A DNA stretch of 64,000 nt, taken from Ignavibacteriales bacterium. GTDB taxonomy: Bacteria > Bacteroidota > Ignavibacteria > UBA10030 > SZUA-254. Shown here in pieces: positions 2,398-26,857 of the stretch. The notes beneath the pieces are model-generated. The model saw only the letters and a program-made list of their open reading frames with translations. It was not told the origin of the DNA and ran no database searches. Both the position numbers and the translations under genes were made by a program. The stretch is taken from NCBI GenBank assembly GCA_016214905.1, contig JACRMQ010000007.1:631695-695694 (forward strand). The letters run 5' to 3'. How positions within the stretch are numbered: the first letter of the stretch is position 1; the number at the start of each line of letters is the position of its first letter.

Positions 2398-2413
2398 TTA
2401 TTCTTTAAATTGT

Positions 2414-9312: not shown

Positions 9313-9842
9313 AAGCTAAAAAGATGAGTATCGTAAAATTAGTTTTCGACCTTATTGAAGATAGTAATTATTTTCTCAAAGAAGCTGAAAAGTTAGAGAA
9401 TAATTCTTCGGTCCAGCAACGATTCCTAAGAGCATCCCTCCTGAGTGTTTGGTCTGGATTTGAAGGTTGGATTAATAAGACTTGTTCTGATTTAGCAAAA
9501 ACGATTACTGATATTACCGTGCATGAAAAAGGTTTCTTAGTCGAAAAAAGGATTGAGATGAAGAACGGTTTATTCGTGTTGACAAACTCTGATAAATATG
9601 AAACCATAGAGAATAAGGTCGATTATTTGCTTAGGAATTTTGGAAACCGTAGGCTCGATAAGTCAAATAAACATTGGCAAAACTTTAAATTTGTCAAAGA
9701 ATTACGTGATTCCATTGTTCATCCTAAGAAAATTAATCCACCGCATTTATCGATTTCAAACGTACGTTTAGCTATAGAAACTATTAAATATTATTTACAG
9801 TTGCTCTCGATAAGGATTTACAAAACTAAACTTGAGATATAA
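9309..9842 (+). CDS. HEPN-domain protein (putative RNase effector)
   Basis: 177 aa. C-terminal ELRDSIVHPKK is a canonical R-x4-H HEPN motif, and the N-terminal half looks helical. Translationally coupled to the preceding gene; ends 5 nt before hsdM. Confidence 0.55.
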   Translation: MKAKKMSIVKLVFDLIEDSNYFLKEAEKLENNSSVQQRFLRASLLSVWSGFEGWINKTCSDLAKTITDITVHEKGFLVEKRIEMKNGLFVLTNSDKYETIENKVDYLLRNFGNRRLDKSNKHWQNFKFVKELRDSIVHPKKINPPHLSISNVRLAIETIKYYLQLLSIRIYKTKLEI

Positions 9843-9847
9843 TAATT

Positions 9848-11269
9848 ATGCCTGACGTCGTCCAAAAACTCTGGGGATTCTGTAATACGCTCCGTCATGA
9901 TGGAATCGGTTATGGCGATTACATCGAACAGCTTACGTATCTCCTTTTTCTAAAACTCGCTGACGAAAAAGGTGTCGGCGTTCCAAAAAATTATTCATGG
10001 CAGCACCTCAAGAGCTTGTCAGGTACAACACTCACCGATCATTACATCGAGATGCTGAGAAAACTCGGTAAAGAGAAGGGTATTCTCGGCGACATCTTCG
10101 CCGGTGCGCTATCCAAGTTCCGTGAACCGGTCAACCTCAAGCGACTTATCTCACTTATAGATGAAACAGAGTGGTCGGAGCTTGATGTCGATCTCAAGGC
10201 GGATGCATACGAGGGACTTCTACAAAAGTACGCCGCCGAGCAAAAGGGTGCTGGACAATACTTCACACCTCGTGAAGCGATTCGCTCAATCGTTCGCTGC
10301 ATGAAACCGGATATCCGTGAGAATCCTGAGTTCAATATCCATGATCCCGCTGCAGGTACAGCCGGATTTCTCATCGGTGCATTCGAGTGGATGATGAAAC
10401 AAACCAATCAAGGTGCATCATTCACACGTGAAGATCGTATGCGCCTTCTCAAGCGAACATTCTCCGGTATGGATATCGTTCTCGAAACTCGCCGCCTTGC
10501 CCTGATGAACCTTTACATTCATGAAGTCGAAGCGCAAATTTATTATGGCGATTCGCTGGCAGAAGGTCCGCATACAAGCAAGAGGTACAATTGTGTTCTC
10601 ACCAATCCTCCATTCGGCACAAAGGGTGGAGGTGAATCACCCAACAGGGACGACTTCACTGTGAAAACATCCAATAAGCAGCTCAACTTCATACAACATG
10701 TGATGCAAATCTTGAAAACCGGTGGACGTGCAGCAATGGTTTTACCTGATAACGTCTTGTTTGAAGATCACGCCGGCAAAGAAGTCAGGCAAATCTGGAT
10801 GAAAGATTGCGATCTTCATACGATTCTCCGTCTTCCCATCGGTACGTTCACGCCATACTCACCGGGAGTGAAAGCCAATGTTGCCTTCTTCCGAAAAGGA
10901 TTACTAACCGAAGAAGTGTGGATGTACGATTCACGAACGAATACTGAAAAAATCGCCAAACGTAAGCCGCTCACGGCTGTGTACTTCGAGGATTTCGAGA
11001 AGTGCTACGGTAACGATCCAAACGGACATCCCAAATCCAAACGTAAAGAGACGGACCGATTCAAACGCTTTACTCGTAAAGAAATTGAAAAACGAGATGA
11101 CAACCTCGATATCTTCTGGCTTAGAGATGAGAGTCGCGAAGATAACGAGAACCTCCCTGAGCCTGAAGACCTGATTACAACAGCCATTGACGAGCTTCAA
11201 TCCGCTGTGGATGAACTGAACGATGTTATGTTAATACTCCAGAACGGCAATGGCAAAAAGAAAGTCTAA
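9848..11269 (+). CDS. hsdM: Type I R-M N6-adenine DNA methyltransferase subunit M
   Basis: SAM-binding motif I HDPAAGTAGFL and catalytic motif IV LTNPPFGTKGG. The HsdM N-terminal helical domain is present. Confidence 0.92.
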   Translation: MPDVVQKLWGFCNTLRHDGIGYGDYIEQLTYLLFLKLADEKGVGVPKNYSWQHLKSLSGTTLTDHYIEMLRKLGKEKGILGDIFAGALSKFREPVNLKRLISLIDETEWSELDVDLKADAYEGLLQKYAAEQKGAGQYFTPREAIRSIVRCMKPDIRENPEFNIHDPAAGTAGFLIGAFEWMMKQTNQGASFTREDRMRLLKRTFSGMDIVLETRRLALMNLYIHEVEAQIYYGDSLAEGPHTSKRYNCVLTNPPFGTKGGGESPNRDDFTVKTSNKQLNFIQHVMQILKTGGRAAMVLPDNVLFEDHAGKEVRQIWMKDCDLHTILRLPIGTFTPYSPGVKANVAFFRKGLLTEEVWMYDSRTNTEKIAKRKPLTAVYFEDFEKCYGNDPNGHPKSKRKETDRFKRFTRKEIEKRDDNLDIFWLRDESREDNENLPEPEDLITTAIDELQSAVDELNDVMLILQNGNGKKKV

Positions 11270-12836
11270 TACCATTCTGAATCCATCGAAGGCGCGTAAA
11301 GAATCTGATTTTACACCACCTAACGGTTTACCACCAGGATGGGCCAATGTTGTTCTCGAAGAGGTCTTGCTTTCAATCGAGAATGGGAATCGTCCAAAAG
11401 GTGGGGTTCGAGCATACACTAGCGGTGTACCTAGTATTGGAGGTGAACACTTAAATGATGATGGCGGTTTCAAATTTGATAATATTCGCTACGTTCCGGA
11501 GGATTTCTACCAGAAACTTAATAGAGGCAAAATTAAACTTCAGGATGTGCTTATCGTAAAAGATGGAGCAACCACAGGTAAAGCATCTTTCATTAACAGT
11601 GATTTCCCTTACAAAAGTGCAGCTGTCAATGAACACGTGTTCATCATTCGTGGATGTCCTCAAGTGATCGACCAACGATATCTGTTTAGGTACCTTTTCT
11701 CTAAAGCAGGCCAAGAACAAATCGACAGTAACTTTAAAGGTTCAGCTCAAGGAGGTATAAATTCGACTTTCATATTAAATTTCTTCCTTCCTCTTCCACC
11801 TCTCCCGGAGCAAGATCGCATTATTGAGAAGCTTGAGAAGCTGTTAGAGCGAGTCGAACGAGCCAAGGCATCCATCGAGAACGTTCCGAAGATTATCAAA
11901 CAATTCCGTCAGGCAGTTCTTGCTGCTGCCTGCTCAGGTAAGTTAGTCGAGCAGGATTCTTCTGATGAACCAGCATCTGAGCTGCTCAAGCGCATCCGCA
12001 TCGAGCGAAGAAAGAAATGGGAAGAAGATCTACATGCTCGCCGAAGCTCAAAGAGCGTAGGCGAGATTATCAAAGGCAAAGATCCGAAGAAATACAAGTA
12101 CGAAGAGCCAGTGGAACCGGATACATCAGAGTTGCCAGAGTTACCGAATGGGTGGGTGTGGGCATTTCTTGATGATGTTTGTCCATCAATCCAAGACGGA
12201 ACACATTATTCACCAAAAGTTCAATACAAAGAGCCGGGGAAAGATCGATATCTTTATATCACATCGAAGAACATAAAGGATGAAGGGATTGATCTTACGG
12301 ATGTTACTTATATAGATACCAAAATTCATGCAGATATATTCAAAAGATGTAATCCGGAGAACGGTGATGTCCTGCTCATAAAAGATGGTGCTATAACTGG
12401 TCGAGCGACTATCAACAACTTAGATGAAGAATTCAGCTTGCTTTCAAGTGTTGCATTGCTGAAGACAAATCACCAAATACTAACTCCTAAATATTTACGA
12501 AATTACTTGGTGAGCCCGTTAGGATTTAAAATTATAACAGGGCAAGTTACAGGGTCTGCAATTACACGTATTGTTCTCCATAAGATAAAGAGTTCGCCAA
12601 TATCGATACCACCATTAGCTGAACAGAAGCGCATCGTTGCCAAAGTTGAAGAACTCTTCACCCTTGCCGATACTATCGAAGCATCAGTCAAAAAAGCCCA
12701 AGCCAACGCTGAGAGAATTAAACAGTCACTCCTTACAAAAGCATTTCGTGGTGAGTTAGTCGAGCAGGATCCGAATGATGAATCGGCAAGTGTGCTGCTT
12801 GAAAGGATACAAGAAGAAAAGAAGAAACAGCAGTAA
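11250..12836 (+). CDS. hsdS: Type I R-M specificity subunit S
   Basis: Two target-recognition halves, each followed by the conserved helix LPPLPEQDRIIEKLEKLL or IPPLAEQKRIVAKVEELF. Overlaps hsdM by 20 nt. Confidence 0.9.
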   Translation: MAKRKSNTILNPSKARKESDFTPPNGLPPGWANVVLEEVLLSIENGNRPKGGVRAYTSGVPSIGGEHLNDDGGFKFDNIRYVPEDFYQKLNRGKIKLQDVLIVKDGATTGKASFINSDFPYKSAAVNEHVFIIRGCPQVIDQRYLFRYLFSKAGQEQIDSNFKGSAQGGINSTFILNFFLPLPPLPEQDRIIEKLEKLLERVERAKASIENVPKIIKQFRQAVLAAACSGKLVEQDSSDEPASELLKRIRIERRKKWEEDLHARRSSKSVGEIIKGKDPKKYKYEEPVEPDTSELPELPNGWVWAFLDDVCPSIQDGTHYSPKVQYKEPGKDRYLYITSKNIKDEGIDLTDVTYIDTKIHADIFKRCNPENGDVLLIKDGAITGRATINNLDEEFSLLSSVALLKTNHQILTPKYLRNYLVSPLGFKIITGQVTGSAITRIVLHKIKSSPISIPPLAEQKRIVAKVEELFTLADTIEASVKKAQANAERIKQSLLTKAFRGELVEQDPNDESASVLLERIQEEKKKQQ

Positions 12837-13396: not shown

Positions 13397-13432
13397 GTTG
13401 ACAAAATGTAATATTTTTCGTATATTGTCAAC
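13397..13432 (+). promoter_or_regulatory. Sigma70-type promoter embedded in an 8-bp inverted repeat (candidate operator of the XRE-ImmA regulator)
   Basis: TTGACA (13398-13403), 17-nt spacer, TATATT (13421-13426). Inverted repeat gttgacaa (13397-13404) / ttgtcaac (13425-13432). A GGAG lies 6 nt before ATG 13451. Confidence 0.6.
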
Positions 13433-13450
13433 CAGAGAAATGGAGAATTT

Positions 13451-14521
13451 ATGATTGGTATTCGAATTAAACAAGCTCGGTTAGCAGCGGGCTTTTCCTT
13501 ACGAGAATTGGCAGAAAAGACGGATAATTATATAAGTGCACAAGTTATACATAAGTATGAACTTGGTAAATCTATGCCCGGCTCCGATGTGTTGCTTAAA
13601 TTAACAAAAGCGTTAGGAGTAAAGATGGAATTTTTCTTTCGTCCTTTAACTCAAAATGTATCACTTAGTTTACCTGCATATCGAAAACGTGCAACGGCTT
13701 CGGTTAAACATCTTCAATCCGTTCAATCCCATGCAAAAGATTGGGTCGAAAAATACCTAGAAGTTGAATCACTCTTCTCCGATCATCGGGTTTTAAAAGT
13801 ATCTTTACCCAAAGAACAAGATCGATTTATATCTAAGTTGGTGGATGTAGAACATTTAACTAAAGAACTGAGAAAACATTGGAAACTTGGGATTGATCCT
13901 ATCGAACATCTAACTGAAGTTCTTGAAGATAGAGGAGTGAAGGTTGTCATGCTGGAAGGCGAGGATGATTTTGACGGTCTATCTTGCTGGGCAAATGACG
14001 AAATCCCCGTAATTGTTGTGAAGAAAAATCAAACTTCCGATAGATTACGTTTCAGTATCGCTCACGAACTTGGCCATCTGCTTATGAAATTATCATCGTC
14101 TGTTAATCCGGAGAAAGCTTCAGACCGTTTTGCAGGTTCCTTTCTTGTCCCCGAAGAAGCCGTCCGGCTTGAACTTGGGGAATCGAGAAATAAACTCAGT
14201 GTTTTTGAACTAAGGTCGATTAGAAAAAAGTATGGTATGAGCATTCAGGCATGGATATACAGAGCAAAGGATGTAGGTGTCATCACTGAAAATTATGCGA
14301 CGTCAATTTTTCGATTATTTAAAAAATTAGGTATCCATACCAAGGAACTTGGAGATCAGCTTCCTTCCGAGCAACCAAAACGTTATGAACGTTTAGTCAT
14401 TCAGGCTGTTGAAGAAGGATTGTTATCCCCAGCCCGTGCAGCTGAGTTGCTTGGCATATCACTTAACGAATTCCGAAAAAATCTTAAGGGTGGCTTTGAA
14501 AGATCCGACACTAGTTCTTGA
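13451..14521 (+). CDS. XRE-family HTH fused to an ImmA/IrrE (COG2856) zinc metallopeptidase domain
   Basis: N-terminal HTH (IGIRIKQARLAAGFSLRELAEKTDNYISAQVIHKYELGKSMP). HExxH site in FSIAHELGHLLM. Confidence 0.85.
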   Translation: MIGIRIKQARLAAGFSLRELAEKTDNYISAQVIHKYELGKSMPGSDVLLKLTKALGVKMEFFFRPLTQNVSLSLPAYRKRATASVKHLQSVQSHAKDWVEKYLEVESLFSDHRVLKVSLPKEQDRFISKLVDVEHLTKELRKHWKLGIDPIEHLTEVLEDRGVKVVMLEGEDDFDGLSCWANDEIPVIVVKKNQTSDRLRFSIAHELGHLLMKLSSSVNPEKASDRFAGSFLVPEEAVRLELGESRNKLSVFELRSIRKKYGMSIQAWIYRAKDVGVITENYATSIFRLFKKLGIHTKELGDQLPSEQPKRYERLVIQAVEEGLLSPARAAELLGISLNEFRKNLKGGFERSDTSS

Positions 14522-14987
14522 CACAAGTATATGTGTCGATCTTTCCAATGGGAAGCTGCTCGAAATTGCATTGCAGCTACACTATACATTTCTTTTACCA
14601 GATGTCATCGCTGGTGAGTTAATGGATCCACAGGGAGAAGACTTGCTGAAGATAGGTTATAAGGTAATTAATCTTGCACCCGAACAAATCGGTTACATCG
14701 AAATATTAAATCAAAAATACAGTCAGCCTTCGAGAGCCGATTTATTTGCGCTTGCATCAGCAAAATATCTCTCGTGTATTTTGCTGACAGGAGATCAATC
14801 ACTTCGTAAAGCTGCAGACACAGAATCAGTAGAAGTTCATGGAATATTATGGTTGTTAGACAAACTTGTATTTGGCAAGCTAATCACTGCGGATTTTGCT
14901 TCCCATTCACTTAATAATATAATCGAAAGCGGAAGCTGGTTACCCAAAAAAGAAATCGAAACGCGATTGAAGAAATGGAAAAAATAA
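14490..14987 (+). CDS. PIN-domain protein (COG2405/DUF3368-like)
   Basis: LVLDTSICVDL is the N-terminal acidic PIN motif. ILLTGDQSLRKAADTESVEVHGILWLLDKLVFGKLI follows the DD..aR..A...G..v.GtlgvL pattern. GTG 14490 is proposed as the start (32-nt overlap with the upstream gene); the ORF-track start at 14409 would overlap by 113 nt. Confidence 0.7.
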   Translation: MALKDPTLVLDTSICVDLSNGKLLEIALQLHYTFLLPDVIAGELMDPQGEDLLKIGYKVINLAPEQIGYIEILNQKYSQPSRADLFALASAKYLSCILLTGDQSLRKAADTESVEVHGILWLLDKLVFGKLITADFASHSLNNIIESGSWLPKKEIETRLKKWKK

Positions 14988-15041
14988 TGCTGTTAAAATT
15001 CTCGCTTGAAATTAATCAAGTTAAATTATTATTAATAGATT

Positions 15042-18000
15042 TTGAGATCAAACATCGTGCGTGACGATTTTTCACAATCAGTGAAGGAATTACTTGCTAA
15101 GCGAGTTAATTATCTTTGCTCAAATCCGAAGTGTTTGAGACAAACTTTAGGACCACATTCCGATCAATCAAAATTTGTTAGTGTTGGAGTAGCGGCTCAC
15201 ATTACTGCAGCAGCACCAGGTGGAAAAAGATATGATCGGTCGCTCTCTAAAAAAGAGAGAATGAGTTCGAGGAATGGTATCTGGCTCTGCACAGATTGCG
15301 CAAAAATAATTGACACTGATGAGGTTGCATACCCAGTGGATCTCTTGCAAACATGGAAAAGAAGCGCAGAGACTTTAGCATCGAAGGCTTTCCAAAGCGG
15401 GTTTTCAATTGCGAGTGAGGGGTCGTCATTGTCGCTATTGTACTCAATTAATGCTGATAACCAAGAATTAGTATCCCAAATTAATACGATTACTGAAAAA
15501 GAATTGGAAGATCAACGTCAATCTTGGCGTGAAGGAAAAAGAGAAGACGCTCAACTATGGATATCTTCAGTTAAAACAAACGATACAATATGGTTAGCTC
15601 TGCCAGGCGAAACTAAAGGCAAAATTCTGAATTTTGAAGCAGCTATCGGTCTTGATAGTATGAGTGACATCAATCATGTCCAAATATTAATCAACCAAGC
15701 AGGACAAATCGCACCTTCTGTAAATCAAGTCCGTCTACGAGCGATGCTTACATACAAAATGTCCGGTCCAATTGATGCAATCAAACTTCTTGACGAACAG
15801 ACGGACATCGATGGACTTAATCTAAAAGCAGCTTTATATCTTGAAACTGGAGAAATACAAAAGTGCGAAGAAATATTCGTCTGCGATGGTGGATTGGATG
15901 CACTTACAAAGCAAAAACCCAACGCAGAGGTGTTCAGAATTCGTGCGCTTCTACATCTTGTAAAACGTGAGATTGATCTATCTCGACTCGCGATTCGAAA
16001 AGCATTGGAGCTTCAACCCAAGTGGGAAAGTATCAGAATTACTGCAGCTCTGATAAACTATTTCTGTGTTATTGTTCCTGCCGCACTTCCTGCACGACTC
16101 ATGCCTTGGCCTGAGCCTGTCGATTGGCGAGCTCTTAAACGTGATAACGATAGCGTTAGATATCTCCGCGAGGCAACAGAGACCTTCAAAGAGCTCATTG
16201 AATCTCATAGGAACAATCTCGAAATACGCCAAACATTCGAATCATGGTTTATTGCTTGTCTATTAAATGATGCTATGCGGCAAGACGAAGCGATAGCGTG
16301 CTGCCAGAATTTCTTAAAAGATGATCCTGCTCACTATCGAATAGTTGCTTGGGTAACTTCTCGTAACTTGGATATAGACCTTCGACCGTCGATACATACT
16401 CTTGAGAATCTTATTAGAAGAAAGAATGCTACAGCCATTCATGTTGTTATTCTCGTTAGTTGCTATTTGATAAAAAAACGTTCGACCAAGGCTATTAAAT
16501 TGCTTCAACAGCAAAAGAATATCTTTCTCCAACAGAAAGGTAAAGAGCTTTGGCACTTCTGGAACGTTCAATCTTATGTAGTTGGAGAAGATATCAAAGG
16601 TGCCGCACGTGCCATAAAGGAGTGCTCGACAGAGATCAATACACAATCGCTGGAAGAGATGATTCTGCATGCCCAATTCATAAAGGATGGAAAGCCGGAA
16701 CCATTAATCGAATATCTCGAATCAATTCACAGGAAAACTAACGATCCAATATATTTGCTTGAAGCGTGTGAAGTAATGGCTCAGGGGGGCAATTGGAAAT
16801 ATGTATCCGAGCGCGCTGACATACTAATTAAGGAAGTTCAAAGTATTCAAGCGGTGAGGTTAACAGCTATATCGACACTAAATAATGGTGACCCAGGAAC
16901 TTGTCTGAAGATCATTGATGATCACATCCATATTTTCCCCGACCGTCAACTCCCAAGTGATCTCCGTCGAGTCAGAATCCAAGCGACACGAGCTCTCGGT
17001 TTGTTGCCAGATGCCTTAGCCGAAGCTGAAAAACTTGCTCACGATGATTCATCTACAACAAATATTCTCAATTGTGCTCAATTGTATTTCGAAACTGGTG
17101 ACTTGAAAGGTCTCGCGACTAATGCGAGACTGCTTATTGATCGTACAGATGTCACTTCTGAACAATTATTGAATTTGGTACGGTTAGTTAATTTGGGGGA
17201 CCATAATTTAGCATGTGCACTATGGCGAAAAGCTATGAATAATGGAATCCCTGATTCTACTGTTTCTCTGGCTTTTGGGCTTGCATTTCAGCTTGGGCTC
17301 GAAAAGGAAATTGGTTCACTTCATAAGCGAATGGCTGACCTCAGTCATTCTAGTCGTCATGGTGTTAAAATGTTTTCTCTCGATGATTTAATTTCCCTTA
17401 TAAAGAATCAGCGAGAGCATACTGAAAAAATAGAAGACGCTTACAATAATGGGATTGCACCAATACACCTTATTGTTGAGCTAGCCAATAAGACACTTGT
17501 GGAGCTTTATCATTGGTCTTTGACTAAGCGTGAACAAGCACGCGATCCTCAATATCAATCATATCTCTTAGCGCGTCATGGAGGCAAACTACTAATGAAT
17601 TGTTTCCCCCAGGAAGCTCCTTCATGGAACCTCCACTTAGACATTACAAGTATTCTACTCGCAGAGCACTTGGGTATATTTGATTTCATTGAAAAATCAT
17701 TTACTCCAATTATGATTCCAATGGAAACGATACCTGCACTTCTTTATATGCAAGAGCGGATGAAATACCATCAACCTAGTCGATTGGAGGAATTTCGAGC
17801 TATCCTTAATATGATTGAGATGCAAAAGATTTTTGTAATTGAGGATCGACTTAAAGAAGAATATGAGAATCATTCTCTTATAGAAGAGATGGGTATGGAC
17901 TGGGTCTCCCTGCTTGAGAACGCACGGATAAAGAATGGTTATCTCGTCGATTTTCTTCCACTTATAAAAAATGATCGGAGTGGTCCTCCCAGTGCTCTTT

Positions 18001-21000
18001 CCCGTGAAATGAGTCAATTGATCCTTGATAAACGTGCCGTTATAGAATCACTATACAAATTTGGTCCTTTGACAAGCGACAATTATAAGCATGCACTCGA
18101 AGCAAATGGCTATTCGAAAGATAATGAGTGTAACGGTCAAGTGCCCACGCAGGGAAAGAATCTACTTTTCCATTTCAATACAATTGAAGGATTTTCTAGC
18201 TCTGGAATGCTTGATGCTCTATGTGAACGATTCACTGTCTACATTGAAAAGAATGAACTAGACCATATTAAAGCAGAGCTAGATTCTAATCAACAAACAA
18301 CAGAGGTATTCCACTGGTTGGGTGTTTTGATTGACCGACTTCGAAGTGGTGTAGATAAGAATGTCTATTCAATTCTTCCTGCTGTTCAATCAGATAAGAA
18401 AAGTGAAGATATCGGTAATGATCTTGAGAGTAAGTGTCTCAGATCCTTATTTCAATACAAGGTTGCACCAGGGGACGTGATATGGTCAGATGATCGTTTC
18501 ATGAACAGTTATGCCCATCGTGATGGGGCACCAATAGTCGGAGTAAACGAAATATTAAAAGGACTTGTCGCAGCCGGGTCTATCAATGAGGATGTTTACT
18601 ATGAGAAGATAAGTCGGCTACGTGCTGGAAATGTCCTATTTGTTCCAGTACTAACCGAAGAAATTCTATATCATATACGACACGCACATGTTCATGAGGG
18701 AACCCTTGTCGAGACCGATGATCTCATAATACTTCGACGTTACATCTCCTACTGTTTATCAAAAGGTCACCTTCTCCAGCGTCAGCCAATGCAGGAAAAT
18801 GCACCGAACAGAGACGGTGAGATTGCTTTTATCATAAGTCTAGGTCGTGCCTTAAATGAAGCGCTTGTTGAGATTTGGTGGGACGAAAATGAAGAAGAGA
18901 GAATTCTGCTTGCAAGGTCAGAATGGGTTCTGAACAATCTACTTATGAATCACCTCGCCATTTTTGAACAGACGGGCTTACATAAACCTGAGCACGATGA
19001 CCTCTTCATTACGGCACTTAGTCTTTCAATTCTCTTGACCCACGCCATCCAGTTCAAAATTAAGTCTTCATCGCTAAAAGAAACTCCGCGTCAAAAGTAC
19101 TTTCGGTGGTTATACCACCGCGTTCTTCGGATGCGATTCGAAGCCGATCCGCACCTTCCAGAAATTGTTGCAAATCAAATCAACAAGACACTGCAATCAA
19201 TGCCTATCAAAAGCGCTGATCCGCAGACTATCAGTGCAGAATTGTTCATCCTGCAATCCTATTTTCATGATCTCCCCGAACCAATTCGTGAAGCACTTTC
19301 GAAGGATCATGACTTCATGGAGAGTATTGGATTGAAATATGGTCCACTTGTAACAGTAGCAGAACATTCATTTGAAGCCCAGACATTTTACAGTGCTGTT
19401 TTGGAGGCAATTAATGGGAGAGAAGTAATAGCATCAACGACTCATCCTGAAAAGAGAGATATTACCTTTATGCCAATGTTGGAGGGCAGATCTGATGGTT
19501 TTTGCATCATAAACCCTTCTACAAATGAAAGACTTCAGGTTGTAGAGGAGACAATTGGAATACTCCGAGATTCTATAAACGAACAACAGACTTTTCTAAA
19601 ACAACATCGATCTTGGTTCGATGTTGATGAAGAAACATACACAAAAATCTCTACTGAGATTCTTTCAATTCGAGATGCTCGAGGAAGGATGGATGAGATC
19701 CAATCATGGCGTGATAGAAGTATGAGCGTTCATTACCAAACCATCACATCAAAAATAAGAAAGACTTCTCAGATCAATTTACAGCAACTAGATCCACCAA
19801 CAGCTGAAGGTATTCTTGGGTATCTACGTATTCCTTTGTCCGCAGGACCAGGGGCAGAGTTCAAACGTGCATTAGAGATTGCTGCAACATTGTTGATCGC
19901 AGAAGAAGGCCTTTCTGAGGCGATAAAGCGACTTTTTGCTTTGCCTGTTCCATTACCAGATGCTCTTTTAGATGCTGTCACACAACTTTCCCGGGAAAAA
20001 CGTCGATCTCTAATCAAAAGAATATTGAGAACTTCACCATCACCCGTGTCGAGAATTCATTTAATTCGTATTATCTCGGATTGTCTTACGGATTCACCAT
20101 CTTATCTATATCTGTTACGTCGAATTGTCAGAGGGTTGCTAAGTGATGAGGGAAAAGAATGCTTTGGAGCGTTTTCAAGTGTTCTGAAATACTTCAATGA
20201 AGAATTTACTCATTCAAATAAATTTACGAAAATACCTTATCATATTCGGTTGGCAGCTTGCTGGGCGCACTCGAACCAAATTTTTTCGATATTCGTTTTC
20301 GAGGGAACACCGATAAAATGGATAGAAGAAACCTTTTCAATCTCGCGGCAACGGTTGCCTTCTGATGTCTTCAAGCGAGATCCTGAGTATTGGTTCAATA
20401 TTATCCACCCCCGACGAATCAATAGGCTAGGATTCCTACTTTCAGGTATTGGATATTCGTTCGGACAAAATGCTTTACACATAGTCAATGAGCATATACT
20501 AGGTATAATTACTGAGGTAGCCTTTCCTGTTATCAATGGTAAACCATTCCCGTCTCATGAGATTTTGCTTGATCCTTCTCTCTTTAATGATTCGGTGAAT
20601 TCATTTCTTAGCGGCGATCGCGGTGAGAAACTGGCGCCATTGCTTGGCAACGACTTGGCCGACATGCTCAGCAAAGCATCACTTGAAACCTCGACTCTTG
20701 ATGTGGTCAAGTCTCTTATCGAGCGACAAACCGATTTCTCACTTTGGGCATTATTACACGCGTTGATCGGTGAGTTGCCTCCCCCGAAGGAGGTCGCGGA
20801 ACATTTGAAATCCTTGATGCGAAAAAGTGACTTGCTCGAGATCTACCATTCTAATGTCGAAGCTGGACAGTTCGCAGTGCTTATGTTAACCCAACAGTTG
20901 ATCAATCTTAAGGATGAAGGATTGCGTCAGAGGTTTCGCAGTCAACTGATTGCGTTGACAAAATATCTTGCAGACAATCTTTCTACTACCAAGATATCAA

Positions 21001-21245
21001 GGCAAGACGAATACCCAAACAAAATACAATATGTTCTTGTTAAGTCTGCATTCAATATTTCGGTTGCAGTAGAGCCACCCAGAGATTCGGTAGAAGGGTT
21101 TCAGGCTTTACTGACTGACCTCGTGAAAGCATGGCCAGCAATGATCCCTGCATGCAGTACTCTCGTTAATCGGTTTTGTGAGGAATTACCTATCGTCGAG
21201 GCAAAAAAGCTTTATCACTTGCTTGTTCGAATTCGATTGCACTGA
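15042..21245 (+). CDS. Giant (2067 aa) multidomain protein: N-terminal HNH-like nuclease, TPR-like array, internal PIN-like segment, ~800-aa helical C-terminal region of unknown function
   Basis: A single uninterrupted ORF. aa ~20-110: CSNPKC...VAAHITAAAPGGKRYD...RNGIWLCTDCAKIID (HNH family, with the last His replaced by Ala). aa ~180-760 is TPR-like helical repeats. LHLDITSILLAEHLG... and ...VIWSDDRFMNSYAHRDGAPIVGVNEILKGLVAAGSI resemble a split PIN. No Walker A motif seen. The start is uncertain (TTG 15042 or GTG 15057). Confidence 0.75.
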   Translation: MRSNIVRDDFSQSVKELLAKRVNYLCSNPKCLRQTLGPHSDQSKFVSVGVAAHITAAAPGGKRYDRSLSKKERMSSRNGIWLCTDCAKIIDTDEVAYPVDLLQTWKRSAETLASKAFQSGFSIASEGSSLSLLYSINADNQELVSQINTITEKELEDQRQSWREGKREDAQLWISSVKTNDTIWLALPGETKGKILNFEAAIGLDSMSDINHVQILINQAGQIAPSVNQVRLRAMLTYKMSGPIDAIKLLDEQTDIDGLNLKAALYLETGEIQKCEEIFVCDGGLDALTKQKPNAEVFRIRALLHLVKREIDLSRLAIRKALELQPKWESIRITAALINYFCVIVPAALPARLMPWPEPVDWRALKRDNDSVRYLREATETFKELIESHRNNLEIRQTFESWFIACLLNDAMRQDEAIACCQNFLKDDPAHYRIVAWVTSRNLDIDLRPSIHTLENLIRRKNATAIHVVILVSCYLIKKRSTKAIKLLQQQKNIFLQQKGKELWHFWNVQSYVVGEDIKGAARAIKECSTEINTQSLEEMILHAQFIKDGKPEPLIEYLESIHRKTNDPIYLLEACEVMAQGGNWKYVSERADILIKEVQSIQAVRLTAISTLNNGDPGTCLKIIDDHIHIFPDRQLPSDLRRVRIQATRALGLLPDALAEAEKLAHDDSSTTNILNCAQLYFETGDLKGLATNARLLIDRTDVTSEQLLNLVRLVNLGDHNLACALWRKAMNNGIPDSTVSLAFGLAFQLGLEKEIGSLHKRMADLSHSSRHGVKMFSLDDLISLIKNQREHTEKIEDAYNNGIAPIHLIVELANKTLVELYHWSLTKREQARDPQYQSYLLARHGGKLLMNCFPQEAPSWNLHLDITSILLAEHLGIFDFIEKSFTPIMIPMETIPALLYMQERMKYHQPSRLEEFRAILNMIEMQKIFVIEDRLKEEYENHSLIEEMGMDWVSLLENARIKNGYLVDFLPLIKNDRSGPPSALSREMSQLILDKRAVIESLYKFGPLTSDNYKHALEANGYSKDNECNGQVPTQGKNLLFHFNTIEGFSSSGMLDALCERFTVYIEKNELDHIKAELDSNQQTTEVFHWLGVLIDRLRSGVDKNVYSILPAVQSDKKSEDIGNDLESKCLRSLFQYKVAPGDVIWSDDRFMNSYAHRDGAPIVGVNEILKGLVAAGSINEDVYYEKISRLRAGNVLFVPVLTEEILYHIRHAHVHEGTLVETDDLIILRRYISYCLSKGHLLQRQPMQENAPNRDGEIAFIISLGRALNEALVEIWWDENEEERILLARSEWVLNNLLMNHLAIFEQTGLHKPEHDDLFITALSLSILLTHAIQFKIKSSSLKETPRQKYFRWLYHRVLRMRFEADPHLPEIVANQINKTLQSMPIKSADPQTISAELFILQSYFHDLPEPIREALSKDHDFMESIGLKYGPLVTVAEHSFEAQTFYSAVLEAINGREVIASTTHPEKRDITFMPMLEGRSDGFCIINPSTNERLQVVEETIGILRDSINEQQTFLKQHRSWFDVDEETYTKISTEILSIRDARGRMDEIQSWRDRSMSVHYQTITSKIRKTSQINLQQLDPPTAEGILGYLRIPLSAGPGAEFKRALEIAATLLIAEEGLSEAIKRLFALPVPLPDALLDAVTQLSREKRRSLIKRILRTSPSPVSRIHLIRIISDCLTDSPSYLYLLRRIVRGLLSDEGKECFGAFSSVLKYFNEEFTHSNKFTKIPYHIRLAACWAHSNQIFSIFVFEGTPIKWIEETFSISRQRLPSDVFKRDPEYWFNIIHPRRINRLGFLLSGIGYSFGQNALHIVNEHILGIITEVAFPVINGKPFPSHEILLDPSLFNDSVNSFLSGDRGEKLAPLLGNDLADMLSKASLETSTLDVVKSLIERQTDFSLWALLHALIGELPPPKEVAEHLKSLMRKSDLLEIYHSNVEAGQFAVLMLTQQLINLKDEGLRQRFRSQLIALTKYLADNLSTTKISRQDEYPNKIQYVLVKSAFNISVAVEPPRDSVEGFQALLTDLVKAWPAMIPACSTLVNRFCEELPIVEAKKLYHLLVRIRLH

Positions 21246-21441
21246 TGAGAATTTGGTTTTACGGAATCAAACAGAGTTGATTTGAGCTAACTAATTCACT
21301 CCTTCGGTTACGTTTCATATTCAAGCCGCGCAGCATTTTATATTATAACATTTGATGTGTACTACCCGGGCAGGATGAAACGTAAAGTCTAAACCGCAAA
21401 CTAAGAGCACACCCATGCTTCAGGCTTTTATTCCCAATTAA

Positions 21442-21479
21442 TTTTTTCAATATAGTTGTGCACACTTGTCTTTTTCGGC
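21442..21479 (+). repeat. 38-nt direct repeat, copy B (right boundary of the cassette)
   Basis: ttttttcaatatagttgtgcacacttgtctttttcggc, 36/38 identical to 13346-13383. Lies 197 nt after the giant gene's stop. Confidence 0.85.
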
Positions 21480-21557
21480 TGACGCCTCAAAAGAACAAGA
21501 GAGCACTTTATCATAGTCGTCCCGCATCGAAGCGGGACTAATTAACATGAGCGCAAA

Positions 21558-21609
21558 TCCTGCGGTTTTAAAATTTATTATAATATTTTTAGGTTTTTAA
21601 AACGCAGGA
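21558..21609. repeat. Long AT-rich hairpin
   Basis: tcctgcggttttaaaa (21558-21573) pairs with ttttaaaacgcagga (21595-21609), 15 bp with one bulged g, ~21-nt AT loop. Confidence 0.5.
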
Positions 21610-21668
21610 ATTGCTCACTAACTCTTACTAATCCCCATTTCTATTGACTTAATCCTACCACAACCAAG

Positions 21669-21845
21669 CCTCCGCAATCATACTGTTATTCAATAAGCCA
21701 AAACTAAAATCGGCTTCGCGATTCCATTTCTGAAAGTTTCTCGATAGGGATGGAATCGCTCTTTATTTTGCCTGCATTCACTCGCAACCGTTTATGATTG
21801 CGGAAAGTTCTCTTTGGTTACTTTCTCTTCAAAGAGAAAGTAACA
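21669..21845. ncRNA. Structured repeat element, copy 1 (candidate non-coding RNA; family not recognised)
   Basis: 177 nt sharing its ends and stem-forming segments with 23296-23473. P1 ccgcaatcata (21672-21682) / tatgattgcgg (21793-21803). P2 gcgattccat (21718-21727) / atggaatcgc (21760-21769). Terminal 12-bp hairpin at 21817-21844, plus a competing hairpin 21808-21817 / 21829-21838. Strand undetermined. Confidence 0.5.
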
Positions 21846-22180
21846 ACTCCAACTCTTATTTTCTGAGCTCCTACATTCTAACTTAACAAACGCATTGTTG
21901 CTAACTTCATCATTTGATCAGGCATCCCGACTCGATTGCCATCTAGACGGGATCTGTTCTTTCCCCAGCATAAACACAAAGTCCCACAACCGGGTGGTGA
22001 GCGCCGTGGGAGGGCCGGTCACTCACGTGGGATCCCGGAAGTGGGACAAAACCGCATCCAATCTAACACATTCCTAATTATTTTTCAAATCTCAAAACCT
22101 ACTATTCAACTCATTTAATTGACCGCTTTAAATTGAAATATATCCCCGATAAAATCCCACTCCCTCGTCAAGGGCAAGTC

Positions 22181-22208
22181 TCCCGCCACAAGAGAAGTGG
22201 CGGGATTT
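22181..22208 (+). terminator. Terminator-like hairpin in gene-free DNA
   Basis: tcccgccac (22181-22189) / gtggcggga (22197-22205), a 9-bp GC-rich stem with 7-nt loop followed by ttt. No protein gene lies upstream within ~900 nt, so it may end a small RNA or be a REP-type element. Confidence 0.35.
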
Positions 22209-22255
22209 AAATCGTGAACGCTCACAATCATATCGCTCCACTCCTTCATAAACCC

Positions 22256-22297
22256 TGTCCTGAGCGATCCCGCTCCTTGAGCGGGAGAGCCGAAGGA
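22256..22297. repeat. REP-like element of the gtcctgagcg...cgaagg family
   Basis: tgtcctgagcgatcccgctccttgagcgggagagccgaagga is nearly identical in outline to 62302-62343 (tgtcctgagcgatcccgctagaagagcgggagagtcgaagga). Contains the hairpin tcccgct/agcggga. Confidence 0.7.
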
Positions 22298-22625
22298 TCA
22301 GTCCGTTCTGCTCTATCATTGCTCGCTAAAAAATTTTGGTTCCCTCTCACGTCACCGCAGGATTGTATTCACAAACCTGTGGTGTGTGGGGAAAGAAGAA
22401 GTGGCAACATCCACGCCATTCCGTTTTACGGAAGTGTCATGTATGTCGCATATTCACTTCTTCTCTCCCCCAAAATTTTATTTCACGACCCTTGACTTCG
22501 GTCGTCCCTTTGAAATGATGATCTCTACAAGCGGTCAATCAGTTTTTGAGAAGTTTTTCGAGAAAACTGCCCTGAGCGAAGGCGAAGGGTCTGACTGCAT
22601 TTAATCACAAATACAAGAGGTCATT

Positions 22626-23219
22626 ATGTCACATCAACAACTCAACCAAATCTTTTCACAATACATTTCAACTTTGTATAACGCTGCAAAACGAATGATC
22701 GACAAACGGCATCCACAGTATGATGATAAAGTTCAAGACCTTGTCATTCTTGCGTACGAGGAATTTATCCGTAAAGTTAATGAAGGGAAAATAATGGAGC
22801 TTGCGCTTCTAATTCATTACATGAAACTTCGCAAGAAAGAAGTGCAGATAGAAATGAGAGGGTATTCCCGGACAAATAAAACTGACGTGTTCAATAAGCG
22901 GAATTATTATGAAGGGAAGTTAGAGCTTCATTCAATCGACAATTCTATCTTCAATGGTGAAGGAGACACATACGCAGATATTATTCAAGATGAATCCAAT
23001 CTTGAAGATTATCTTCATTATAAAATAGATCTTGATACCCGTTTATCAAAACTATCAGAAAAGGAGAGAATTATTTTTATGATGAAAGAAGAAGGTTACA
23101 ACGATGACGAAATCGCTCAAGCAGTGTCGGTTAACATTCAAACAGTCAAAAGTTTTATAGACCGACTTTTATTGGAATTCTCCAATAAACACTCGAATCA
23201 ATTTACACTTCAACTTTAA
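22626..23219 (+). CDS. Sigma-70-family-like factor / region-4 HTH protein (phage or mobile-element type)
   Basis: 197 aa. The C-terminal LSEKERIIFMMKEEGYNDDEIAQAVSVNIQTVKSFIDRL looks like a sigma region 4 / LuxR-type HTH. The N-terminal half is only loosely region-2-like. Confidence 0.55.
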   Translation: MSHQQLNQIFSQYISTLYNAAKRMIDKRHPQYDDKVQDLVILAYEEFIRKVNEGKIMELALLIHYMKLRKKEVQIEMRGYSRTNKTDVFNKRNYYEGKLELHSIDNSIFNGEGDTYADIIQDESNLEDYLHYKIDLDTRLSKLSEKERIIFMMKEEGYNDDEIAQAVSVNIQTVKSFIDRLLLEFSNKHSNQFTLQL

Positions 23220-23295
23220 CTTACCTATAATTCCCACCGAAAAGGATTCCGTCTCAGCCAAATGAGACGGAATTCCACTTCCTATATGTTTTTCC

Positions 23296-23473
23296 CCTCC
23301 GCAATCACACTGTTTTACAATAGCCCTTAACAAAATGAGCTTTGCGATTCCGTCATTCATAGCCATGATCAGGCTAAGGAATCGCTTTTTAATCATGCTG
23401 CTATTTCGAAAGCAACCGTTTGTGATTGCGGAAAGTTCTCTTTGGTTACTTTCTCTCCAAAGAGAAAGTAACA
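23296..23473. ncRNA. Structured repeat element, copy 2
   Basis: P1 ccgcaatcaca (23299-23309) / tgtgattgcgg (23421-23431). P2 23344-23351 / 23378-23385. Terminal hairpin 23445-23456 / 23461-23472. Perfect competing hairpin ttctctttgg (23436-23445) / ccaaagagaa (23457-23466). Ends 110 nt upstream of the next gene. Confidence 0.5.
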
Positions 23474-23582
23474 ATTAATCAATTTCTTTCTTGACGACTG
23501 AATGAAAATCCATCCACAATAACTTTGGTATAAGAAGTATGCAATCAACAATAATCCAAAACAATTAAAAGGAGATTTTACA

Positions 23583-24302
23583 ATGAACACACAAAGAGAA
23601 TTTGTGCAACTCAAAGAGCACTACATCGCAGACGTCACGCTGAAATTTGCCACCGGTCTTAAGAAGGAAGGTCAATTCGGTCCGTATTTACTTTATTCCG
23701 TTCAACACGAAGGGAAAGAGAAGTTCTTGAAAGTTACGGATCGGTTGGAGAAGCAGTTCCGTAAGTTCGACGTGAAAGCCGGTCAAGTAGTAAGCTTGTT
23801 AAAAGAAACCATCACACCGAAAAATGGTGAGCCGTTTACGGTGATAAATGTACTCGAATGCAAGGATGCACCTCACGAAGTGATGGATTCCCAAAAACCC
23901 GAGAAAAAGGAGGAGTTGATTCCACAAAAAGTGGAAAGTGCTCAACCCATCCCACAAACACCAGAAGGTTTTTCCGGTGATACATTAACAATGTATCAAT
24001 CCTTACATGATGCAGTCGACATCACAAAAACCATTGATGGAGTGGAGTGGAGAAATACCGACATCGAAAAAATCGGTGTTTGTTTGTTTCTCTCACGCAC
24101 CGGACAGCTTACAGTCGATAAGGTTCTTTCCAATGGTAATGGAAACGGTAAGCGCTTACATCGTTCTGCACCAAAGGCGCATCAGCCTCTGGCTGATAAG
24201 AAAGTTGAAGATGTGAAACCAGCTACAGTCCCTGAAAAGGTTCAAGAAATGGTTCCGGTACCAGCTGAGGTAGCCGTTGAAAAAGACGACTTGCCATTCT
24301 AG
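23583..24302 (+). CDS. Hypothetical protein with SSB-type acidic C-terminal tip (possible phage ssDNA-binding protein)
   Basis: 239 aa ending ...VEKDDLPF, resembling the D-D-D-I-P-F tip of bacterial and phage SSBs. A Pro/Glu-rich linker precedes it. The N-terminal ~95 aa could be an OB fold, but I recognise no canonical SSB motif. Good RBS (aaaggag). Confidence 0.45.
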   Translation: MNTQREFVQLKEHYIADVTLKFATGLKKEGQFGPYLLYSVQHEGKEKFLKVTDRLEKQFRKFDVKAGQVVSLLKETITPKNGEPFTVINVLECKDAPHEVMDSQKPEKKEELIPQKVESAQPIPQTPEGFSGDTLTMYQSLHDAVDITKTIDGVEWRNTDIEKIGVCLFLSRTGQLTVDKVLSNGNGNGKRLHRSAPKAHQPLADKKVEDVKPATVPEKVQEMVPVPAEVAVEKDDLPF

Positions 24303-24322
24303 CAGTTCAGAAAATAAATCGA

Positions 24323-24349
24323 AGGCACGGTTCAAACCGTGCCTATTTT
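24323..24349 (+). terminator. Rho-independent terminator
   Basis: aggcacgg (24323-24330), ttcaaa loop, ccgtgcct (24337-24344), then atttta. Lies 21 nt after the stop codon. Confidence 0.75.
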
Positions 24350-24380
24350 AAAATCACATTTTATATGAAAGGCATCTATC

Positions 24381-24893
24381 ATGACCGAAACATTATACGA
24401 AATCACAAAAGACCTGATCATTCTCAATAATCTTGACGAAGTCGATTCGACTAATGGACAGGAGGGAAACGATAAACTCGAACAACTTCAACAAGCTCTC
24501 GATAATCTCAATATGAAATTTATTGATAAGGTTTGTAACATCGTGAAATTTGTTAAGAATCTTGAGGCACACCGGGATGCTTTGGCTGCCGAAGCTAAAC
24601 GGCTTGCTGAACGAAAACGATCATTCGATTCTCGAATTGACTGGCTTAAGAAATATGTTAAAAACGCTATGGAAGTAACTCAATCAAATAAAATCAAATA
24701 TGCGTTTTTTACAATTTATGTTGCACCAAGCCAACCGAGTGTCGAGGTTAGAAATATCGATGAAGTTGAGGAGGAGTTCCTCAAGGTGAAAAAGGAGGTC
24801 GATAAAACAAAAATCATGGAACAGGTGAAATCTACCGGAGTTATTCCCAGTGGAGTAGAAATCGTTCAAGGTACGCACCTTGTGATTCGATAA
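24381..24893 (+). CDS. Siphovirus Gp157-like protein
   Basis: 170 aa. Central coiled-coil NLEAHRDALAAEAKRLAERKRSFDSRIDWLKKYV, then F...V..S.PSVEV...D...EEF...K...DK..I and GV.I....HL.IR. This follows the Gp157 family pattern as I remember it. Confidence 0.6.
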   Translation: MTETLYEITKDLIILNNLDEVDSTNGQEGNDKLEQLQQALDNLNMKFIDKVCNIVKFVKNLEAHRDALAAEAKRLAERKRSFDSRIDWLKKYVKNAMEVTQSNKIKYAFFTIYVAPSQPSVEVRNIDEVEEEFLKVKKEVDKTKIMEQVKSTGVIPSGVEIVQGTHLVIR

Positions 24894-24901
24894 AAAACGA
24901 T

Positions 24902-24932
24902 GATACCGTCTCTCCATTTCCGAGACGGTATC
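24902..24932 (+). terminator. 11-bp hairpin directly after the Gp157-like gene
   Basis: gataccgtctc (24902-24912) / gagacggtatc (24922-24932). No clear T-run follows. It occupies the first 11 codons of the tracked ORF 24900-25163, arguing against that start. Confidence 0.4.
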
Positions 24933-24944
24933 GCTTACTTACAC

Positions 24945-25163
24945 ATGGAAAAGAAAATTCAAAAGTTCAGCAAGGAAGGCGACCTTGTCTTAGTCGAGGT
25001 ATGCGGAGAACTCCATTTCGGAGTTGTTGCGTTTGCTTCCCGACGCTGCATCTGGACAAGCGCACCGTTGGAGCGCGGTACAATTCTCGGTGTGAAAGTC
25101 GCCGCTTTACCAGAGAAGCAAAGAATCTACACTTATGAACCTTTCGAAGATTCAGGATTGTAA
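24945..25163 (+). CDS. Small hypothetical protein (72 aa)
   Basis: The ATG at 24945 lies after the hairpin. No motif recognised. Ends exactly where the A-poor sequence begins. Confidence 0.3.
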   Translation: MEKKIQKFSKEGDLVLVEVCGELHFGVVAFASRRCIWTSAPLERGTILGVKVAALPEKQRIYTYEPFEDSGL

Positions 25164-25380
25164 TGCTACGATTCTGCCTGCCGATACGTGCTTGGTTTGA
25201 GTTCGCTCTCGTGGGTTCTGCAAGATACAGCCCCGTTCTCGCCACACAAGCCTTTCGCCTTCGACTTCATTCACTTCGTTCATTCCGCTCAGGCTCAACC
25301 CTCGTTTGTGCAGCTCTGCTCCTCACTCGTTTGCAAAAGGATGCGCCTTTGAATGTCACACCTTTTGCATAAAACTTCGT

Positions 25381-26130: not shown

Positions 26131-26214
26131 CAGCAGGCATCATAGGTGTGGTTAAAGAATAGGTGTTCAATTCATTTGTGTATTTGGTATAACATTAACA
26201 AGAAAGGATTCAAT

Positions 26215-26607
26215 ATGAAAACGAAATCATTTTTCATTTCAACAATACTCGTCATTATCTGTGAGATTATTTTTCAAGGACAAATCATAGCTGATGTCAA
26301 GAAGGCAATTCAAAATCTTCAGGAAGGTCTTGATGAGGCAATCCTTACAATAATTCCGGATGAAAGAAAATTTGTTCGATTCGACAAACGTGAAGATGGA
26401 ATATTAATCTACAAAGTATCGATGCAAAAAGTTGATGAAAAGACCGTTCGAATTCGTGTCACCGGATACAGTGGAATGGATGTCATCTCTATCATAACGT
26501 ATCGAATCATTGATGGAGAAAGTTATAAAACGATTGAAGAGTACAAACATCAGAAACAAGCCACCGACATTGGTATAACAAAAACAAAGAAAGGAGTCAA
26601 ACAATGA
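26215..26607 (+). CDS. Small secreted/membrane-anchored hypothetical protein
   Basis: ATG 26215 is preceded by agaaagga. The N-terminus MKTKSFFISTILVIICEIIF looks like a signal peptide or anchor. No motif recognised. Confidence 0.5.
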   Translation: MKTKSFFISTILVIICEIIFQGQIIADVKKAIQNLQEGLDEAILTIIPDERKFVRFDKREDGILIYKVSMQKVDEKTVRIRVTGYSGMDVISIITYRIIDGESYKTIEEYKHQKQATDIGITKTKKGVKQ

Positions 26608-26804: not shown

Positions 26805-26857
26805 AGTTTTCGGCTGTTTACATAATTAACATAAAACTTTTGATAGGAACCGTAGCC

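Follow-up and report, generated by a model that had tools for sequence, protein, structure and literature searches.

A Rosmer-like Gene Pair and a TGP-like Double-PIN Giant Gene as Putatively Separate Modules of a Bacterial Defence Island

Introduction

RosmerTA is reportedly the RmrT/RmrA system of Millman et al. 2022. Antitoxins carrying an ImmA domain, to which that of RosmerTA belongs, are reported as partners of PIN-like toxins in the NetFlax network of toxin–antitoxin (TA) systems (Ernits et al. 2023, PMC10440598). In the TGP conflict systems, a constant body of TPR, GreA/B-C and PIN domains carries one of 13 N-terminal effectors, HNH and restriction endonuclease (REase) domains included (Kaur, Iyer, Burroughs and Aravind 2021, eLife, PMC8195603). 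TGP genes mostly stand alone (PMC8195603). A double-PIN form is mentioned in the supplement of the same paper once, in one table line, as a 2304-aa 'SIR2+TPR+PIN+PIN' protein. The TGP protein Agp of the Bab/Agp system from E. coli ECOR25 confers protection against phage T5 that is lost when the GreA/B-C domain of Agp is mutated (bioRxiv 10.1101/2024.11.07.622273). These systems are compared here with three consecutive plus-strand genes of an Ignavibacteriales bacterium, located at 13451-21245 in a stretch of 64,000 nt of contig JACRMQ010000007.1 (hereafter, the window). Gene 1 encodes a 356-aa RmrA-like protein, gene 2 encodes a 163-aa PIN-like protein related to DUF3368, and the third gene encodes a protein of 2062 aa, called the giant below.

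A first-pass annotation had described these genes as a single novel defence operon corresponding to no named system. Its statement that ImmA/COG2856 proteins and PIN-like proteins form a known pairing agrees with PMC10440598. The annotation is partly supported: its domains and the defence role were right, whereas the single novel three-gene system found no support. It is likely instead that a defence island here holds two adjoining, separable defence modules, namely a Rosmer-like pair (13397-14987) and a stand-alone giant of the TGP kind (15057-21245). The apparent three-gene system would thus resolve into two portable modules, and a 7.8-kb stretch of the island is re-annotated by domain (Table 1).

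Independence of the Two Modules

The two modules are independent, since neither accompanies the other elsewhere. A tblastn search with the proteins of both gene 1 and gene 2 found an RmrA-like or DUF3368 gene in none of the 13 independent giant loci with a usable upstream flank. Conversely, a giant homologue is present in none of the five independent loci that carry the pair. The giant is a stand-alone gene with no shared neighbour across the 13 loci. In the co-occurrence check suggested by the first-pass annotation, the homologues of the giant are therefore found without the ImmA/PIN partners, which contradicts a single three-gene system. Apart from the window, the three-gene arrangement occurs on two metagenomic contigs (L002, L003), both identical to the window.

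The three open reading frames (ORFs) were found on the plus strand where they had been placed before (13451-14521, 14409-14987 and 15042-21245 in their longest forms), with two of the starts corrected. The likeliest start of gene 2 is TTG 14496, since the resulting length equals that of the database protein P0121 (163 aa) and the homologues align from this position; gene 2 thus overlaps gene 1 by 26 nt. The longest form of the third ORF opens with TTG and encodes 2067 aa, the size given previously. The start of the giant was set at GTG 15057, because its homologues all open with M-R-D-D-F and the database protein P0001 has 2062 aa. The gap between gene 2 and the giant gene is accordingly 69 nt and not 54 nt, as was assumed earlier.

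The RmrA-like/DUF3368 Gene Pair

The assignment of gene 1 to the XRE-ImmA type was confirmed by matches to HTH_3 and Peptidase_M78 and by an intact HELGH motif (Table 1). Fourteen RmrA models of PADLOC match the protein nearly end to end, the best of them with E=1.7e-53 over residues 2-320, so that gene 1 does resemble a component of a named system. The small PIN partner was upheld as well. The gene 2 product matches DUF3368 with E=7.4e-5, which is below the Pfam cut-off, and PIN weakly (0.01); its sole PADLOC match is PDC-S70 (7.6e-4, full length). Residues D9, D15, E41, D82, H115 and G116 show no variation among 17 homologues and D100 shows next to none, the acidic residues characteristic of PIN (D9, E41, D82, D100) being kept.

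The pair is similar to RosmerTA in that gene 1 encodes an antitoxin-like protein with an HTH and an M78 zinc peptidase and overlaps a small, variable gene for a putative toxin, the whole being situated in defence islands. Unlike RosmerTA, the DUF3368 partner lies outside the PADLOC models of RmrT, none of which matched gene 2 at E<=1, and gene 1 reaches 128 bits with the NCBIfam spr1629 antitoxin model, below its cut-off of 335. The PIN protein has no matching RmrT model, which leaves formal membership in RosmerTA unestablished and speaks against a Rosmer-like nature of the pair. Since the RmrT families are diverse, the lack of a match weakens the formal membership and not the functional analogy. 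A further likeness, to CapH/CapP and ImmR/ImmA, consists in the HTH repressor, the M78 protease and the operator overlapping the promoter. In contrast to these systems, gene 1 fuses the HTH and the protease in one polypeptide that is paired with a putative toxin, and no CBASS (cyclic oligonucleotide-based antiphage signalling system), integrase or prophage module is evidently controlled by it.

The top sigma-70-like match (11/12) between 12700 and 22700 is TTGACA-17-TATATT at 13398-13426, just before gene 1. Its -35 and -10 elements are both enclosed by the perfect palindrome GTTGACAA-N20-TTGTCAAC at 13397-13432, which occurs as a single copy in the window. The operator was surveyed in five RmrA-like loci (L002 and L003, identical to the window, and the independent L011, L012 and L013) as well as in eight giant-only loci. 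In the former, GTTGACAA-N20/21-TTGTCAAC was present once per locus, just 5' of the RmrA-like gene; it was found in none of the eight giant-only loci. Protein identity to the window is 56%, 54% and 37% in the three independent loci, in which the promoter is conserved as well. As far as was found, a conserved palindromic operator of the RmrA-like/DUF3368 cassette has apparently not been described before.

Genes for an RmrA-like and a DUF3368 protein are adjacent in five independent loci (L011, L012, L013, L031/L032 and L033), and they overlap wherever the RmrA-like gene is seen whole. The identities of both proteins drop together across the loci (56%/50%, 54%/52%, 37%/37%). These pairs occur in defence or mobile settings, which include a Type I restriction-modification (R-M) system with QatB/KAP NTPase, an MmeI-type enzyme, bacteriophage exclusion (BREX) genes and insertion sequence (IS) elements. 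In L013, the pair comes immediately after the gene for a helicase exceeding 2000 aa (1-3413; DUF4011, AAA_11/12, MTES_1575) with a GreA_GreB domain, and BREX genes follow. It is thus a second pair beside a giant protein with a GreA-type domain, which may be a coincidence. In L011 (3703-3876), L012 (3699-3872) and L033 (6702-6875), a divergent gene just ahead of the RmrA-like one codes for a highly conserved protein of 57 aa (MAKNPPYGDN...); tblastn did not find this protein in the window.

On this basis, genes 1 and 2 are probably a self-contained, autoregulated, Rosmer-like TA/defence cassette. The XRE HTH of the 356-aa protein would bind GTTGACAA-N20-TTGTCAAC over its own -35 and -10 elements and repress its own promoter, while the same protein would hold the translationally coupled DUF3368 PIN-like RNase inactive. 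By analogy to ImmR/ImmA, CapH/CapP and RosmerTA, a signal of infection or damage could activate the M78 zinc protease; the repressor and antitoxin function would then be lost and the PIN toxin freed. The conserved operator over the cassette promoter makes this Rosmer-like autoregulation directly testable.

A same-strand gene follows the pair in all five loci, and it is variable. The pair overlaps this gene in L033, whereas the gap is 43-91 nt in L011 and L012 and 427 nt in L013. In L031/L032, which represent one lineage on two contigs, a gene for a DEAD-box helicase of 517 aa begins 8 nt after the pair (L031 8509-10062; L032 898-2451), which suggests that longer operons can begin with the pair. 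This raises an alternative for the window, an integrated operon in which the RmrA-like repressor-protease controls one transcript from the promoter at 13398 over both the PIN gene and the giant gene, so that loss of the repressor on infection induces both nucleases in the manner of CapH/CapP and CBASS. Such an operon would agree with the placing of the other pairs before a variable same-strand gene, at a short gap in four of the five loci, as expected of a portable regulatory cassette, and with the matches of gene 1 to the PADLOC models of capP (8.9e-17) and capH (1.1e-6). The giant gene also lies on the same strand after 69 nt, and consensus scans of this spacer found no terminator-like site, sigma-70-like site or operator copy; co-transcription is thus possible, which tells against a strict separation of the modules. 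The integrated operon is nevertheless rather unlikely, given that the pair is missing from the 13 other giant loci and that the operator, a second copy of which was searched for upstream of the giant, is not repeated there. The genes 3' of the other pairs are mutually unrelated and some are housekeeping-like (ATC_hydrolase, prolyl isomerase), and stand-alone genes are the rule among TGP systems (PMC8195603). The promoter scan, moreover, covers sites of the sigma-70 type, and the host may belong to the Bacteroidota/FCB (Fibrobacteres–Chlorobi–Bacteroidetes) group, which uses other promoters. Read-through of the giant gene from the cassette promoter is conserved in neither family.

The Giant Protein

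Judged by its sequence, the giant fits a large member of the double-PIN subfamily (PF24407) of the TGP class, which has already been catalogued computationally. With 58.5 bits it passes the PF24407 cut-off, and the absence of a named counterpart that was assumed in the first pass does not hold for this gene either (PMC8195603). PF24388 and PF20698 match at the expected positions below their gathering cut-offs. Like the TGP proteins, the giant is encoded by a single large gene in defence contexts and has a swappable N-terminal effector, a long TPR array and no NTPase; sub-threshold profile matches hint at a TGP-type PIN and at a domain resembling GreA/B-C. Variable heads on a constant body are the pattern by which the TGP proteins are defined (PMC8195603), so the giant fits this class.

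The head is an HNH nuclease module, as the first-pass annotation had claimed. A profile of residues 1-125 matched the PDB entry 9om4 ('HNH endonuclease') with E=1.9e-17 and the SAVED-HNH protein Cap5 (7rwm, 7rwk, 8ysq) with ~1e-10, and in PADLOC the head matched PDC-M68A (1.4e-21), the CBASS endonuclease effector (1.7e-13) and SAVED_HNH (4e-12). The zinc ligands are C21, C26, C78 and C81, and the predicted catalytic residues are H48, N73, D86 and D88; C21, C26, H48, N73, C78, D86 and D88 are invariant. The 115 N-terminal residues are homologous to the HNH of Cap5, the SAVED-HNH effector of CBASS (7rwk, 7rwm, 8fm1), with which they have in common the pattern AHI...N...C-x2-C/H...D-x-D and the zinc ligands. 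In contrast to Cap5, the giant has no SAVED domain, and no cyclase or CBASS component was matched among the neighbours scanned; it therefore cannot be activated as Cap5 is, through a cyclic oligonucleotide. The same head, at 40-60% identity, is also found on NACHT, HEAT, WD40 and canonical TGP proteins, and one canonical TGP protein that bears it is P0054 (1231 aa, PF20698 E=6e-18). Among 38 homologues of the giant, 24 have an HNH head and about 11 an Mrr-like REase, with single cases of TIR+REase, PNP_UDP_1 and an unknown helical module.

The body was modelled with AlphaFold2 (AF2) in two parts, residues 1-1195 with a predicted local distance difference test (pLDDT) of 87.6 and residues 863-2062 (model B) with 88.1. 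The approximately 600 aa of TPR-like repeats described earlier correspond to an all-helical superhelix whose top Foldseek matches are TPR solenoids (Ctr9, TPR subunits of the anaphase-promoting complex (APC/C), Ski3, OGT), and members of the family match TPR_19, ANAPC3 and TPR_2 in Pfam. A helical HTH follows at residues about 775-850, and PF24407 was present in 11 of the 11 members scanned. Two PIN-like beta-alpha-beta domains are predicted at residues 853-1025 and 1030-1195, with their strands at 858-964 and 1035-1161. In this part, D862, D1145, D1146, R1147 and R1189 are invariant and E879 is nearly so. The 49-sequence alignment A2 has nine invariant columns within residues 1-1195, and three of them are the aspartates D862, D1145 and D1146 of the PIN-like domains. 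PF20698 was found in five of the 11 members (best E 3e-4), and PF24388 in nine (best E 1e-4), being precomputed for the homologue P0023. The beta-rich domain at residues 1431-1500 has the order beta-beta-alpha-beta-beta-beta-beta (residues 569-634 of model B). The C-terminal half gave weak CRM1/karyopherin-like matches with Foldseek against the PDB (E ~2e-4, template modelling (TM) score <0.2). Neither a Walker A motif nor a match to an NTPase family was detected in Pfam, PADLOC or NCBIfam, in agreement with the first pass. An assignment to STAND/Avs was ruled out, since the P-loop NTPase (NACHT/AAA) module is absent.

The giant differs from the TGP proteins in being about twice as large, 2062 aa against roughly 850-1300 aa. 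Its PIN is duplicated, its GreA/B-C-like domain is permuted, and a solenoid of 560 aa is added at the C-terminus; it has no amyloid or Bell partner. Several findings weigh against its placement among the TGP proteins. Instead of the order TPR, GreA/B-C, single C-terminal PIN, the giant shows TPR, HTH, PIN, PIN, a helical region, a permuted GreA/B-C-like domain and a solenoid, and it is therefore a variant and not a canonical member. The match to PF20698 (PIN-TPR-GreABC) at residues 861-924 (E=0.0018) reaches 18.9 of the required 27.8 bits, and that to PF24388 (Permuted_GreAB-C) at residues 1436-1461 (E=0.0095) reaches 16 of 27. When the PIN and GreA-like regions were compared by hhalign with an alignment of 16 canonical TGP-like proteins bearing an HNH head, no match was significant. 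Foldseek searches of the PDB with both whole AF2 halves returned TPR/HEAT-like solenoids only, at low TM scores, so no catalytic fold was confirmed structurally. The profile of the full family matched only HNH and TPR entries among PDB sequences. The weak hhalign matches were not used as evidence: against the 16 proteins, the sub-alignments (HTH, PIN-A, PIN-B, middle, GreA-like, C-terminal) gave probabilities of at most 15%, the matches were collinear (HTH to 788-842, start of PIN-A to 850-878, end of PIN-B to 978-1035), and PIN-A against PIN-B gave 35%. The PIN-like part that had been proposed previously thus stands as far as the sub-threshold profiles, the invariant aspartates and the predicted fold are concerned, and falls short of a match above cut-off.

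These sub-threshold matches and the non-significant hhalign comparison, together with more than 1150 residues of solenoid and an HNH head common to many NACHT/STAND sensors, are what could be expected if the PIN-like and GreA-like parts were purely structural. In that case a phage protein would be bound directly by the TPR and C-terminal solenoids, in the way of an Avs-type sensor lacking the NTPase, with the HNH as the sole active enzyme. This reading is regarded as unlikely. For a pure scaffold, it is unexpected that D862, D1145 and D1146 make up a third of the nine invariant columns and that R1147 is also invariant, and in Agp the mutation of GreA/B-C abolishes defence (bioRxiv 10.1101/2024.11.07.622273).

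For a giant of the TGP kind, we infer the trigger, the contact with RNA polymerase and the enzymatic activities as follows. The constant body would sense infection, likeliest via RNA polymerase or via a phage protein altering it. The PIN site would cut transcripts, after which the giant would set free its exchangeable HNH DNase of the Cap5 type to kill the cell or degrade DNA. Literature searches found no paper on the PF24407, PF24388 and PF20698 families or on the double-PIN variant, and the DefensePredictor paper contained nothing relevant.

Distribution of the Giant Family

About 50 full-length homologues of the giant with 25-42% identity were obtained by a word-indexed search. Exhaustive phmmer of its constant region against 1.84 billion representatives (50% identity clusters) gave, for the C-terminal 1200 aa, at least 688 matches at E<=1e-30, and 1114 when the threshold was 1e-10; the length is mostly 1,600-2,300 aa. 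Among 185,579 species representatives of GTDB, a single homologue was found, in a metagenome-assembled genome (MAG) of Anaerolineales; the genome of the window itself was not among the matches. The double-PIN TGP-like giants are thus a large family with a Pfam signature, and the member in the window, with intact HNH and PIN residues, offers targets for mutation.

The first six homologues examined (P0003, P0011, P0010, P0033, P0040 and P0047) have no common neighbour. Their contexts comprise a TIR-containing prokaryotic Argonaute (pAgo) system with helicases, a Type I R-M locus that also has Abi_C and Tn7, TA clusters accompanied by transposases, and, in one case, a housekeeping region. In the latter, P0003 lies between ligA/mraZ and spoIID-type genes, a context that does not favour a defence role. 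It could indicate that the giant is a cellular factor of RNA processing or transcription quality control, situated beside defence genes by chance. No homologue was found in a scan of viral contigs, and the double-PIN subfamily is known from sequence alone, both of which would agree with such a function. It is nonetheless highly improbable. The spread is patchy, with one among the GTDB species representatives against hundreds of metagenomic clusters, the N-terminal toxin modules are swapped (HNH, REase, TIR, PNPase), most loci have defence or mobile neighbours, and two homologues are frameshifted. In all these respects the family behaves as defence genes typically do and housekeeping genes do not. 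One of the two frameshifted homologues, in L007 (5157-11361), is called as a 280-aa and a 1786-aa ORF; for the other, in L001 (10001-15758), the two tblastn segments lie in different frames. The split homologues are either pseudogenes or assembly errors.

It is quite doubtful, if conceivable, that the double-PIN giants form a mechanistically distinct branch of TGP, in which a two-PIN nuclease and the permuted GreA/B-C read the state of RNA polymerase, and that one of them has here been captured behind a Rosmer-type cassette. If true, this would constitute a two-tier, infection-inducible system with the RNase toxin acting first and the giant HNH suicide effector second.

Two observations were made beside the homologue P0011. 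A LexA-like repressor (LexA_DNA_bind and Peptidase_S24; L005/L006 5090-5701) divergently adjoins it, and 4 kb downstream (16184-18180) come genes for a TIR protein and then a Piwi-domain protein, in a SPARTA-like short pAgo arrangement.

Genomic Setting

The defence setting postulated in the first-pass annotation was confirmed. Upstream of gene 1, on the same strand, the AbiEi/AbiEii genes, a Type I R-M system and, immediately before gene 1, a small HNH gene were found (Table 1); this is a genuine defence island.

Table 1. Features of the defence island and of the two modules, in window coordinates
Feature	Position	Strand	Residues	Basis or remark
AbiEi/AbiEii, complete pair	3513-5338	+		PADLOC E=2e-85 and 9e-94; left end of island
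hsdR	5359-7998	+		Type I R-M
hsdM	9848-11269	+		Type I R-M
hsdS	11250-12836	+		Type I R-M
HNH protein, stand-alone, 134 aa	12871-13275	+		Pfam HNH 8e-11, weak PtuB-like matches; between hsdS and RmrA-like gene
Promoter and operator of the gene pair, predicted	13397..13432	+		Sigma-70 consensus scan, inverted-repeat search
Gene 1, RmrA-like antitoxin/repressor, XRE-HTH and M78 (ImmA/IrrE) zinc protease, 356 aa	13451..14521	+		Pfam, PADLOC
Gene 1, HTH_3	13457-13636	+	6-62	Pfam E=2.6e-14
Gene 1, Peptidase_M78	13925-14266	+	159-272	Pfam E=1.5e-13
Gene 1, HELGH motif, intact	14063-14077	+	205-209	
Gene 2, DUF3368 PIN-like protein, putative toxin, 163 aa	14496..14987	+		Pfam, PADLOC, conserved residues
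Spacer between PIN gene and giant gene	14988..15056	+		69 nt, AT-rich
Giant, Cap5-type HNH nuclease module	15057..15401	+	1-115	Profile vs PDB, PADLOC; small zinc-ribbon-like head in AF2
Giant, TPR superhelix	15462..17366	+	136-770	AF2 all-helical, pLDDT mostly >85; ~635 aa
Giant, HTH_upst_double_PIN (PF24407), family-diagnostic	17379..17585	+	775-843	E=8e-16, 58.5 bits vs cut-off 27
Giant, double PIN, tandem PIN-like alpha/beta domains	17613..18641	+	853-1195	PF20698, AF2, invariant residues
Giant, helical linker region	18642..19346	+	1196-1430	AF2 model B, pLDDT mostly >80; no family match
Giant, beta-rich domain, candidate circularly permuted GreA/B C-terminal (FKBP-like)	19347..19556	+	1431-1500	PF24388, AF2 model B
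Giant, C-terminal alpha-solenoid (HEAT/ARM-like)	19557..21245	+	1501-2062 + stop	AF2 model B all-helical, pLDDT ~90

Cytochrome oxidase genes lie further upstream at 198-2397, just before AbiEi/AbiEii. The interval between hsdR and hsdM (8035-9842) holds a 425-aa ORF and a 177-aa ORF. Neither matched Pfam or PADLOC, and the 425-aa ORF had no match in PHROGs either; the two ORFs inside the R-M system may be unknown defence cargo.

Downstream of the giant, the longest ORF within 1.4 kb (21246-22625) is at most 93 aa. Rfam and tRNA scans, empty throughout the window, gave no Rfam match and no tRNA in this segment, which could be the island boundary or degraded sequence. It is followed by genes for a sigma-70 region-4/ECF-like (extracytoplasmic function) protein at 22626-23219, a homologue of Siphovirus Gp157 at 24381-24893 (E=8e-36) and a protein with a C-terminal sorting domain of the type IX secretion system (T9SS) at 26840-27733, the last of which points to a host of the Bacteroidota/FCB group. 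A downstream prophage was considered; the PHROG matches were not to structural phage genes, and no clear prophage structural genes were found in 22626-27733. Further downstream, two paralogous proteins of ~1,050 aa are encoded at 34445-37711 and 40741-43845, each of which aligns with phrog_7301 over the full length (E=7e-187 and 2e-218).

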